A stretch of DNA of 64,000 nt from the NCBI GenBank assembly GCA_029218405.1, contig JAQXRG010000095.1, positions 2,399-66,398 on the forward strand, given 5' to 3'. Of this stretch, positions 1 to 14,833 are shown one piece after another; position 1 is the stretch's first letter, and each line of letters opens with the position of its first letter. This DNA comes from Bacteroidales bacterium. GTDB lineage: Bacteria; Bacteroidota; Bacteroidia; Bacteroidales; Bacteroidaceae. The notes beneath the pieces are model-generated. The model had not been told where the DNA came from. It saw only the letters and a program-made list of their open reading frames with translations, and searched no databases. Made by a program: the position numbers and the translations under genes.

Positions 1-40
1 ACATTACTTTTATATTTGGTTGATACGTTTGCGTACAAAT

Positions 41-108
41 ACTTTTTATACTCCCATTACCTTATTGTGCCATTTTTGCGAATCAGAGGAACCTGTCCCT
101 TTGACCCC
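41..108 (-). repeat. Cassette-delimiting direct repeat, copy 1 (32-bp core 76-107)
   Basis: Core TTGCGAATCAGAGGAACCTGTCCCTTTGACCC is identical at 76-107, 569-600 and 1766-1797. Flank ACTTTTTATACTC-CAT-ACCTTAT is shared with copy 3. Confidence 0.95.
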
Positions 109-500
109 TTGATGTTGGCCACGAACTCCTTGGGAAGGATGATGTTCTCCACATCCATGGCATCCGTAAAGAGGGGAGCTATCTCCTCATCCCGGAATCC
201 TGCTATCCCACAGCCAATACGTGTGACCAGGAACGTCAGTCCGTGATGCGCTTTGGCAAAGCGGATAAAATCATCTACGTAGGGTTTGATGGTATCTACA
301 CCGCCCTGCATGGTAGGGATGGCGTATGTCTGACCATGCAGTCCGACACCTTCTCCCCATACAGCACCAAACCGCTCGTACGCCAATCGTGCGGCACCGC
401 CACCATGTGCGCCTGCCAGATTGCTGCCAAATACGAATATCTCGTTCTCTTTCAATCCCGTAATCCTTTCAGGGGTATATCTTCTGTTGTTCATAACCAT
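57..500 (-). CDS. Macrodomain-like protein (A1S_2505-family 'phage non-structural protein'); C-terminal tail encoded by the repeat
   Basis: Motifs IFVFGSNLAGAHGGGAA, YAIPT and VTRIGCGIAG. The last ~16 aa come from repeat copy 1. Confidence 0.75.
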   Translation of the reverse strand: MVMNNRRYTPERITGLKENEIFVFGSNLAGAHGGGAARLAYERFGAVWGEGVGLHGQTYAIPTMQGGVDTIKPYVDDFIRFAKAHHGLTFLVTRIGCGIAGFRDEEIAPLFTDAMDVENIILPKEFVANIKGSKGQVPLIRKNGTIR

Positions 501-551
501 TATTATCTTACAGTTGGGTCATAATCATTATTTTTTTCTTCTTACCACCTC

Positions 552-601
552 ACCTTATTATGCCATTCTTGCGAATCAGAGGAACCTGTCCCTTTGACCC
601 C
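552..601 (-). repeat. Cassette-delimiting direct repeat, copy 2 (core 569-600)
   Basis: ACCTTATTATGCCATTCTTGCGAATCAGAGGAACCTGTCCCTTTGACCCC, directly abutting the Fic stop codon. Confidence 0.95.
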
Positions 602-1671
602 TATTCTGTAGAGATGGCTAAAACGTGCCACTTGCCGTCTTTCTCGGTTCTTGTAATATATCCTTTGTCTGTCATGGATTTCAGCAGTTTTTGTATGGCA
701 GACTTGTTCACACCCATGATGTCTGTAAGACGGGCGATTGACAAGTCTGGATGAAGCTGCAATGTAGCGAGTAATCTGCTGGCATTGGGGCTGCGGAATG
801 TTATCCGTTCTCCATCGTACCACCAGCCTTCCTCACCTTGGCTCATCACAAAATCAATGTCTGACTGTATCTCTTTCTGTACGAGCTGGGTGAAGTACAG
901 AAGGAAATGCCGTATGTCGGTCAGAGGGGCGTGTGCTCCTAACGATGGAGACAAACCAACTACCATATCCGATTGATGCAGAGCTTCCAGATACTCCTGC
1001 TTTTGGCGGTTGCGTACCACTATCATCGGCCAATCATGACGCGCGAGGATGTAATTGACCATGAGGCGGGCTATCCGACCGTTGCCGTCTTCGAACGGAT
1101 GTATGCGGATATAGCGGTAATGGAAGAGTGCCGCCAATTCAACAGGGGAGAGTTCTCCCTTCTGTTCCTCCTTGTTATACCAATCCACCAAATCACTCAT
1201 GAGAGCGGGAGTCTCTTCTGGGGAAGCATAGTCAAAGTGGTCTCCATATCTCGTTATGACACTGTTGGGGCGTGTCTTATATTGTCCTGCATGTATCACA
1301 TAACTTGTTTGAACACCTCCGGGGAGTGTTCGATATACGGTGTAGTCTTCGCGCAACAATGTATGATGCAGTGTGCGGATGAAGTTTTGCGTCAAGGGTG
1401 TATGGATGCTCTTGGCCTCCTCAGCCATCATCTTCAACGATACCTCGCTGGCCTTCATATCCATAAAGTCCTTCAGGTCACCTTCTCCGCTCACTTTGCC
1501 GAAGAGTAGCAACAGCTCCGTCTGCCCGTATGTCAGGGTGTTGCCCTCCATGTGGTTGGAGTTATAGTTATACTCTACGCTAAACTTCATTCTGAGTTTA
1601 TGCAGCTGTCGTTCGCCAAGCGGTTGCAGACTGAGCCATTTCTGATAGGTTTGTTCTAATGTCATCATCAT
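601..1671 (-). CDS. Fic family protein (AMPylase) with N-terminal inhibitory motif and C-terminal winged HTH
   Basis: Canonical HPFEDGNGRIAR motif; SNHMEGN matches (S/T)xxxE(G/N); C-terminal LSIARLTDIMGVNKSAIQKLLKSMTDKGYI is HTH-like. Confidence 0.92.
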   Translation of the reverse strand: MMMTLEQTYQKWLSLQPLGERQLHKLRMKFSVEYNYNSNHMEGNTLTYGQTELLLLFGKVSGEGDLKDFMDMKASEVSLKMMAEEAKSIHTPLTQNFIRTLHHTLLREDYTVYRTLPGGVQTSYVIHAGQYKTRPNSVITRYGDHFDYASPEETPALMSDLVDWYNKEEQKGELSPVELAALFHYRYIRIHPFEDGNGRIARLMVNYILARHDWPMIVVRNRQKQEYLEALHQSDMVVGLSPSLGAHAPLTDIRHFLLYFTQLVQKEIQSDIDFVMSQGEEGWWYDGERITFRSPNASRLLATLQLHPDLSIARLTDIMGVNKSAIQKLLKSMTDKGYITRTEKDGKWHVLAISTE

Positions 1672-1678
1672 TCATTTT

Positions 1679-1734
1679 TCTTCGTACCACTTTGAAAGGT
1701 GGTACGCGTACCACCTTTCAAAGTGGTACGAAGA
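1679..1734. repeat. Perfect 56-bp palindrome; each arm is itself an 8-bp inverted repeat
   Basis: TCTTCGTACCACTTTGAAAGGTGGTACG|CGTACCACCTTTCAAAGTGGTACGAAGA is its own reverse complement. Each arm contains CGTACCAC-N8-GTGGTACG. Confidence 0.97.
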
Positions 1735-1797
1735 CTTTTTATACTCACATCACCTTATGCCATTCTTGCGAATCAGAGGAACCTGTCCCTTTGACCC
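1734..1797 (-). repeat. Cassette-delimiting direct repeat, copy 3 (core 1766-1797), overlapping the stop codon of the fabK-like gene
   Basis: Same 32-bp core. The TGA of ORF 1773..2726 lies inside it. Confidence 0.95.
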
Positions 1798-2726
1798 TTG
1801 GAAGCGGCCCTGAGGTACTCCTCCAAGAGTCGGTGCATCGCCTCTTCCACCGTAACCACAGGCTGACCTTTGAGCAGGCTGGCTACCTGTCCGATTTCGA
1901 GTTCACCTGCGTCCAAGTCTCCCTCGAACATTCCCTTCTTCGCCCTGCCCTTGCCCAAAAGTTCGCGCAGTTGCATCTCGTCCGCTCCGGCTGCTTCGGC
2001 AGCCTCCACCGCATCGCGGAACTTGTTCTTCACCAAGCGGGTGGGAGACAGTTTCTTCAGCAGCAGACGGGTGTCGCCCTCCTCCAGTTGCAGGCAGCGC
2101 TGTTTGAAGGCCTCGTGCGCCGAACTCTCCTGCGTGAGGGCAAAGAGCGAGCCAATCTGCACGCCATCGGCACCTAAAGCCTGTACGGCATAGATAGCCT
2201 CTCCTGTAGCGATGCCGCCGGCTGCCAGCAGAGGCAGTTGGGTGACCCTGCGTACGGCTGGAACCAGGCAGAGTGTGGTCGTCTCCTCGCGTCCGTTGTG
2301 TCCGCCGGCCTCAAAGCCCTCGGCCACCAGCGCATCCACGCCCGCTTCCTCGGCCTTACGTGCAAACTGGGAAGAAGAGACCACATGCGCCACCTTGATG
2401 CCATGCTCGTGCAGCCACCCTGTCCACTTCTTGGGCGAGCCGGCCGAAGTAAAGACAATCTTCACCCCTTCCTCCACAAGAAGTTGCATTACCTCCTCCA
2501 TCTGTGGATACATCAACGGCAGATTCACGCCAAAGGGGTTCGAGGTCGCCTCCTTTGTCTTGCGGATGTGCTCGCGCAACGTCTCCGGGTGCATTGATCC
2601 TGCACCCAGCAGTCCCAGACCGCCTGCATTACTCACCGCAGCTGCCAGTCTCCAGCCGCTGCACCACACCATTCCCCCTTGTACGATGGGGTATTTGATG
2701 CCAAACAGTTCACAAATTGCATTCAT
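1773..2726 (-). CDS. fabK: Nitronate monooxygenase family / FabK-like enoyl-ACP reductase II
   Basis: YPIVQGGM, GGLGLLG, AEGFEAGGH, AAGGIA and ELEIGQV motifs. Confidence 0.8.
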   Translation of the reverse strand: MNAICELFGIKYPIVQGGMVWCSGWRLAAAVSNAGGLGLLGAGSMHPETLREHIRKTKEATSNPFGVNLPLMYPQMEEVMQLLVEEGVKIVFTSAGSPKKWTGWLHEHGIKVAHVVSSSQFARKAEEAGVDALVAEGFEAGGHNGREETTTLCLVPAVRRVTQLPLLAAGGIATGEAIYAVQALGADGVQIGSLFALTQESSAHEAFKQRCLQLEEGDTRLLLKKLSPTRLVKNKFRDAVEAAEAAGADEMQLRELLGKGRAKKGMFEGDLDAGELEIGQVASLLKGQPVVTVEEAMHRLLEEYLRAASKGQRDRFL

Positions 2727-2765: not shown

Positions 2766-2773
2766 CAAAAGTA
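2766..2773 (-). promoter_or_regulatory. Bacteroidetes sigma-A -7 element (TACTTTTG) upstream of the fabK-like gene
   Basis: TAnnTTTG consensus on the minus strand ~40 bp upstream of the ATG. Confidence 0.6.
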
Positions 2774-2917: not shown

Positions 2918-3193
2918 TTATTTCTTTGAATAATGGTATCTCATGGAGAATATATAAACTTCTATGGTATCGTCATGCACGGAATAAACAATCCGGTGCT
3001 CCGAATTGATGCGCCTTGACCATTTCCCCGCCAATTCATAGTTGAGAGGTTCGGGCTTACCGATGCCTGTATAAGGATGCTCTGCCATATCTTCCAACAG
3101 AGTCTTTATTTTGTTCAGTATCGCTGTATTTCCGCTGTGTGAGAAGAATAGGTATTCTTTTCGTGCCTGTTCTGATAATGTTATTCTGTACAT
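2918..3193 (-). CDS. yoeB: Txe/YoeB family toxin
   Basis: PYTGIGKPEPL, WSRRINSEHRIVY and C-terminal RYHY; overlaps the antitoxin stop. Confidence 0.93.
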   Translation of the reverse strand: MYRITLSEQARKEYLFFSHSGNTAILNKIKTLLEDMAEHPYTGIGKPEPLNYELAGKWSRRINSEHRIVYSVHDDTIEVYIFSMRYHYSKK

Positions 3194-3471
3194 GCCACCC
3201 GTTTTAAGAAGTCCTCCATGCTTTCACTCTCGTTTTGGGTAATGCAGTTACCGCTTTTAATGTCTTCTTCCCCCTTGCGTATGGCTTCCATGGTTTCGGG
3301 TGATGACATGATATATTCGGTTTCCTTTAAAGAATTGTATTCATCCAAAGAAATCATTACCACTCCCTTGCCATTCCCACGATTGATTACAACGGTATCA
3401 TAATCGTCAATGACTGAATCAATATAACTTTTCAGGTTGGTTCTTAAATCTGTGTAATTGGCTGTTCTCAT
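3181..3471 (-). CDS. yefM: Phd/YefM family antitoxin
   Basis: MRTANYTDLRTNLKSYID, VVMISLDEYNSLKETEY; upstream of yoeB. Confidence 0.92.
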   Translation of the reverse strand: MRTANYTDLRTNLKSYIDSVIDDYDTVVINRGNGKGVVMISLDEYNSLKETEYIMSSPETMEAIRKGEEDIKSGNCITQNESESMEDFLKRVACTE

Positions 3472-14551: not shown

Positions 14552-14555
14552 GTAG

Positions 14556-14628
<73 letters not shown>

Positions 14629-14647
14629 ATGTTATTTCTGTTGTTAG

Positions 14648-14720
<73 letters not shown>

Positions 14721-14833
14721 ATGTTATTTCTGTTTTGCGAGTGCAAAGGTACGGACTCTGTTTGATATATCCAAATAATTATCCTGTTATTTTGCATTTA
14801 TTGGCTTTTAGGGGTGAGAAAAGCCGATAGATA

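Follow-up and report, generated by a model that had tools for sequence, protein, structure and literature searches.

Behind a fabK-like gene in a Bacteroidales genome (2.7 Mb, 83% complete), four copies of one repeat are stacked in direct orientation. By sequence, the first 19 bases of this repeat are the terminal repeat of TIRtrons, in which HUH/Y1 genes lie between inverted ends. With modest confidence, we favor the explanation that the copies are solo TIRtron ends and that a transposase acting in trans has joined their 5' edge to varying sites. The family identity, the sharp 5' edge, the variable 3' tails, and the different junctions among alleles are apparent from sequence comparisons. The window analyzed here is a stretch of 64,000 nucleotides (C95:2399-66398); the stack runs past its left end into the adjoining part of the contig.

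An exact 32-bp core occurs on the minus strand of the window at positions 1766 to 1797 (R1), 569 to 600 (R2), and 76 to 107 (R3), with spacings of 1197 and 493 bp, confirming the original prediction; in 200 shuffles of positions 1 to 1800, the longest word present in three copies was at most 9 nt, compared with the 32 observed. A fourth exact copy (R4) was found at C95:2187-2218, about 180 to 210 bp to the left of the window. Along the minus strand, the order is the fabK-like gene, R1, a Fic-wHTH gene, R2, an A1S_2505-family gene, and R3, followed by 255 bp with no gene, R4, a broken A1S_2505 duplicate, a GP30.3-family gene, and a NadD-like gene. The fabK-like host gene, of the nitronate-monooxygenase family (positions 1773 to 2726, minus strand; Pfam NMO, 207 bits), scored 283 bits against TIGR03151, below the cut-off of 453. 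The Fic plus winged-helix protein (601 to 1671, minus strand; 354 to 356 amino acids) matched Pfam Fic and MarR_2 as well as PADLOC SoFic/PDC-S04, and the A1S_2505-family gene (57 to 500, minus strand; 147 amino acids) scored 149.5 bits against NF049995, over a cut-off of 45. Its product, a putative macrodomain protein, was labeled "putative Macro domain" in the ESM Atlas with high confidence, and its sequence had no real match in the PDB. Both open reading frames lie between the copies and share the orientation of the fabK-like gene.

Contrary to what had been proposed, the copies are not cleanly intergenic. The last seven codons and the stop of the fabK-like gene come from R1, the A1S_2505-family gene terminates within R3, its native C-terminal tail being replaced by R3-encoded residues, and the Fic stop codon abuts R2. 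Likewise, one gene per interval holds for only two of the three intervals, since the R3-R4 interval (spacing of 287 bp) lacks a gene and holds just the right-end fragment of an IS3-family element plus a short repeat known from other contigs; R4 then heads the broken A1S_2505 duplicate, which is approximately 90% identical to the window gene. The expectation that no Bacteroidetes consensus promoter lies between the repeats and the gene starts was borne out. On the minus strand of C95:1901-5300, TAnnTTTG matched solely at window position 2773, upstream of fabK, making this -7 consensus match (2766 to 2773, minus strand) the candidate promoter for the stack, and a sigma-70 scan gave no site at the repeats. 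Contigs of RNA run X10 covered fabK, Fic, and A1S_2505; as they also covered intergenic DNA, they are not evidence of co-transcription of the three genes.

Beyond the core, 3' sequence shared between the copies continues for 50 to 75 nt. On alignment, all four derive from a single repeat-plus-Fic-leader module, whose 5' edge is fixed and whose 3' length varies. A Prevotellaceae genome (L066) has a leader, likewise headed by the repeat, that is homologous to the R1 tail and Fic leader (1672 to 1765, minus strand) over positions -2 to approximately +134. R2, of which 51 nt are identical to R4, has an R1-type leader without the palindrome (501 to 568, minus strand), which still closes with a stretch resembling the Fic start and is joined to the A1S_2505 upstream region. 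The R3 tail, also an R1-type leader (33 to 75, minus strand), is broken off by the IS3-end fragment, which begins at positions 1 to 33 (minus strand; blastn) and runs left past the window edge to R4, and the R4 tail is deleted into the duplicate gene. In a set of 11 solo copies, the alignment starts at the initial G of the end, and the sequence 5' of that base shows no conservation. Most pairwise alignments on the repeat started 0 to 3 nt before the edge, a few instead beginning between -4 and -9 or between +7 and +11; they stopped 34 to 158 nt past it, indicating tails of variable length. Of 48 copies, which are not independent of one another, 29 have A at position -1 and 39 have a purine at position -2.

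The R1 leader holds a perfect 56-bp palindrome (1679 to 1734; fold z of -8.9). We rejected it as part of the repeat, as its dyad occurs at Fic homologues instead. Across the Bacteroidaceae, many Fic-wHTH homologues (L127-L155) have a conserved dyad just upstream, often overlapping a TAnnTTTG promoter, and the palindrome appears to be an expanded form of this dyad and a likely candidate for an autoregulatory operator. The IS3-end fragment between R3 and R4, whose family we take from its motif, matched contigs C145, C51, C184, C139, C159, and C35, with an IS3-like open reading frame upstream of the matching end on C184 and C145. The IS3-family right end and the short CCAGTACCAG-containing repeat that follows it were also seen at several contig ends of the genome, and C145 and C159 carry a decayed TIR-like motif near this right end.

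The assignment of the repeat to TIRtrons comes from the surroundings of its motif elsewhere. TIRtrons were named in 2013 by Di Nocera et al. (PMC3733652), who give GGGGWSAS as the TIR consensus; their transposases, the TIRYTs, correspond to TnpA-Y1 subclass 2.1 in PMC6006769, a large Y1 subclass present in 14.9% of strains, and to RAYT group 1 in bioRxiv 10.1101/119735. The consensus was matched at 8 of 8 positions in one element end (L074) and at 7 of 8 in R2 and R3. A metagenome scan for the motif returned 28 loci: in 16 ids (15 contigs) it ends a Y1 transposase gene, and the rest were four dimers, five solo copies with the tail of the window, two other singles, and one match (L083) that was rejected as chance. 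On 11 contigs, a whole element of approximately 1.05 kb, of Segatella copri type, lies between inverted, near-identical copies. Its protein, named "transposase [Segatella copri]", scored 34 against Pfam Y1_Tnp (cut-off, 23) and 56.5 against NCBIfam NF047646 (RAYT), under the cut-off of 80, and carries a Y---NP motif, which is the class-2 motif as given in PMC6006769. As the motif brackets Y1 genes, the prediction that the repeat belongs with an HUH Y1 transposase, which would operate in trans, was upheld.

Related ends also occur away from fabK. In the source genome, relaxed scans located the 19-bp head in inverted dimers (C78 and C103) and in single copies (C161, C159, and C145), and the strict end pattern occurred in 5 of 400 family genomes, one of them with eight copies, mostly intergenic dimers. 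Transposase homologues were present in 25 of 401 family genomes, and at 12 of 30 homologue loci, related repeats of the GGGAC type lie next to the transposase gene; the Y1 genes of G360 and G391 have no such repeat beside them. The S. copri-type element was found with three left flanks and six right flanks and no visible target duplication, and in L078 one of its right ends is joined to the interior of an AlbA-type gene. Flank variety and this mid-gene joint suggest mobility in a class described as mostly immobile. The approximately 1.05-kb TIRtron (L074:3980-5030, L078, L092, and L072) was observed on human-gut contigs, with its protein on more than 1,000 contigs and with doubled ends. L092 is about 500 bp shorter than L078; it contains unrelated filler and was therefore not counted as a clean nested deletion.

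The fabK locus is not itself a whole TIRtron. Its copies are direct and neither the contig nor the genome yielded a Y1 gene (Pfam and tblastn, 83% complete genome), so we regard it as an end-derived element. A transposase query against 108 genomes of the genus gave no match, nor was a transposase found with exactly the end variant of the window beside it. These observations raise the possibility that the stack is passive debris, in which one ancient TIRtron end came to lie at fabK and later copies arose by slippage and RecA, with no transposase involved since. It would agree with such an origin that the window variant does not fold (z of about 0 to +1; the element ends fold weakly, z of -1.9), that the remnant after R4 also has deletions away from the repeats, and that an IS3-end fragment lies within the stack. 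However, new junctions have formed time and again at this 5' edge, with nothing shared on the opposite side, which homology-driven events do not predict, and the 32-bp core remained unchanged in four copies while the tails and the duplicate gene drifted. We therefore consider passive decay unlikely as the source of the stack.

The junctions that bear on the joining model come from strain alleles. Among the 15 fabK cluster members listed of 93, one of which is a fragment, all 14 full-length members have the repeat-encoded tail, and contigs joined fabK to the core in six of seven runs, run X12 having no contig there; R1 thus looks fixed at fabK across strains. Around R1, the alleles differ. The Fic members P0023 and P0025 (among the 15 of 17 members listed), which probably represent one allele, end at approximately residue 157 in a repeat-encoded tail. 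For the A1S_2505 gene, P0031, P0061, and P0065 share the cut point of the window, and in P0062 and P0068 a doubled repeat cuts the gene about five codons further on. P0066 is uncut and keeps the native tail, the same as in the remnant after R4, and P0045 has another repeat tail at its end. Near-identity and contigs of the same size (86,560 and 5,826 bp) were the grounds on which P0023/P0025, P0062/P0068, and P0066 were assigned to the fabK locus, and the uncut gene of P0066 could also stem from homologous recombination between the A1S_2505 gene and the remnant. As judged from these alleles, the junctions 5' of the repeat vary among strains and truncate genes. The strain comparison foreseen by the original prediction was answered in part: junctions differ, but the seven runs gave no unit-skipping joint, empty site, circle, or reordering, their contigs breaking at the core so that the runs cannot phase repeat units. 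The gene set and order at fabK looked alike in all runs examined.

In the joining model, an HUH enzyme of the TIRYT type, supplied in trans, would introduce a nick at the solo end's 5' edge and stay bound to that strand. The nicked edge would then be joined to a 3'-OH elsewhere at low-specificity sites, by analogy with TnpA-REP of Escherichia coli, which performs low-specificity cleavage and strand transfer on single strands (PMC3333891). Joining upstream would trim the upstream gene, as proposed for Fic at about residue 157 and for A1S_2505 at two points. A joint made further along, or to the sister strand, would produce repeat-leader-gene tandem duplicates such as R2-A1S_2505 and R4-remnant. 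The outcome would be the deletion and duplication of pieces of a resident accessory-gene island, with Fic and A1S_2505 presumably read from the fabK promoter. Since DNA 3' of the end would be carried along, occasional one-ended gene capture would also be possible.

A working capture platform has been considered in which the same HUH transposase excises and reinserts repeat-leader-gene cassettes, giving variable arrays of defense-island genes at resident repeats, and this doubtful reading draws on the relatives of the module. Outside the source genome, seven of nine solo tail-bearing copies have, no more than approximately 210 bp further on, a gene or gene remnant on the same strand (Fic, AlbA_2, RhuM, BspA-LRR, and HsdS), while the other two lie before a leader remnant and at a contig end. 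L067/L071 and L068 share left and right flanks and hold different repeat-headed genes, L076 has the order repeat-RhuM-repeat-HNH, and in runs from pig-gut metagenomes, the holders of the core, it is found with many different flanks. The predicted accessory or defense-type cargo was supported by the genes that the repeat heads in relatives. Against a capture platform, the repeat was absent from all 29 other Fic loci (drawn from the 30 best of 59 matches; four loci end at contig ends) and from all 22 fabK relatives, the junctions truncate genes and one interval has no gene, and at fabK all runs looked alike in gene order, with no unit-skipping joint. Five loose, four-mismatch repeat matches at Fic or fabK relatives were rejected. 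Precise, site-specific cassettes added serially, as originally envisaged, were not supported, given the absence from other Fic loci, the gene-less interval, and the truncating junctions, whose differing positions are not those of precise cassette joints.

Because the module heads varied defense-island genes on Prevotella-type contigs, a role in capture is nevertheless possible. Only tentatively do we entertain that solo TIRtron ends anchor a Bacteroidales gene-capture system in which TIRYT moves end-leader-gene units one-endedly. If true, it would be an HUH-based integron analogue, shuffling Fic, RhuM, AlbA_2, HNH, and ADP-ribose genes between gut species, with the units stacked behind host genes and inside restriction-modification islands.

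In wider searches, the exact core had no match in the genome-contig and metagenome-contig collections, a core 28-mer occurred in 1 of 107 genus genomes, and a blast search with R1 plus leader against 401 family genomes matched only two others. Viral sequences contained neither core matches nor a TIRYT relative, and five viral pattern matches, coding and within one long phage protein, were rejected as chance. A search for unrelated proteins ending in the repeat-encoded peptide, a weak test, found none. Internally deleted rhuM remnants and leader-only remnants lie by repeats in L067:5195-5400, L068:1800-1970, and L066, and may be decay products of repeat-rhuM units. Type I restriction-modification loci also carry the tail-bearing variant next to Fic genes, namely L094 and L172 (G360:C13); in L172 it replaces the Fic C-terminus and sits before hsdS. 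The dimers and singles of related repeats in the genome are ordinary intergenic elements, which speaks against the serial cassettes of the original prediction.

Integrons and CALINs hold co-oriented, promoterless accessory genes between repeats, with strain-variable content, and attC sites have RYYYAAC...GTTRRRY ends and a bottom-strand hairpin. The direct repeats and co-oriented promoterless genes of the fabK stack could likewise suggest an integron-like site for a tyrosine recombinase, and six tyrosine-recombinase matches over cut-off lie elsewhere in the genome. However, there was no integron integrase in this 83% complete genome (best TIGR02249 score, 75.6; cut-off, 265), the attC-type end pattern was present at none of the four copies, the motif brackets Y1 genes rather than integrases, and the junctions are imprecise. 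This reading is thus largely refuted, and we hold it to be highly improbable. In contrast to integrons and CALINs, with their IntI and attC, the stack has near-identical instead of diverse sites and a repeat placed at the head, not the tail, of the unit; it is not an integron. It also differs from a CRISPR array in its spacings of 287, 493, and 1197 bp with genes inside.

IS91/ISCR elements and Helitrons have one fixed end, a variable other end, and no target duplication, and carry neighboring genes along, using Y2 or rolling-circle enzymes with ori/ter ends. The end in the fabK stack, in contrast, belongs to a Y1 TIRYT, and a search for a Y2 enzyme, run without a positive control, found none. 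As in REP/BIME systems with TnpA-REP (PMC3333891), the likely enzyme is a Y1 HUH protein, with low cleavage specificity and strand transfer that could vary and amplify repeats; unlike them, the stack lacks a GTAG tetranucleotide, its window variant forms no stable hairpin, and it comprises gene pieces of kilobase scale, and with about four copies plus five other sites (fewer than 15 copies genome-wide), it is unlike high-copy REP/REPIN sequences. TIRtrons and dispersed TIRs are already known and named, and the exact repeat family may already be among the TIR sequences in Figure 9 of PMC3733652. The repeat shares with TIRtrons/TIRYTs the GGGGWSAS-type ends inverted around a Y1 gene and the occurrence as dispersed singles, dimers, and groups. 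It differs from those described in the available text of PMC3733652 in its solo direct stack, its conserved tail and leader, and the lack of an adjacent transposase, and the strain-variable, gene-trimming junctions set it apart from described TIRtrons.

Within the available text of PMC3733652, PMC6006769, and bioRxiv 10.1101/119735, no TIRYT assay is described, and our literature search, in the text accessible to it, returned nothing on solo TIRtron ends stacked over cargo genes. The fabK locus and its relatives may be natural products of a likely TIRYT reaction, in which one end is fixed, the targets vary without being duplicated, genes are trimmed, and repeat-gene units are duplicated. These junction products therefore provide specific substrates for a first TIRYT assay. 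They suggest one route by which gut Bacteroidales remodel the passenger genes of defense islands. Were units to move with their cargo, they would make up an integron-like system of different chemistry; what the data show at present is remodeling rather than such movement.

Other features lie near the stack. After the A1S_2505 remnant, C95:168-1850 (L036) holds the GP30.3-family gene and the NadD-like gene, which has a NADAR-looking C-terminus, and together with A1S_2505, which in other settings is fused to a PARG or an ADP-ribosylglycohydrolase domain, these look like an NAD/ADP-ribose island. A yefM-yoeB toxin-antitoxin pair (40% GC) was observed at window positions 2918 to 3471, between a tRNA gene and fabK, placing accessory DNA on both sides of fabK. 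Further into the window, a tRNA gene at positions 14553 to 14734 is present as two identical 90-nt tandem copies.
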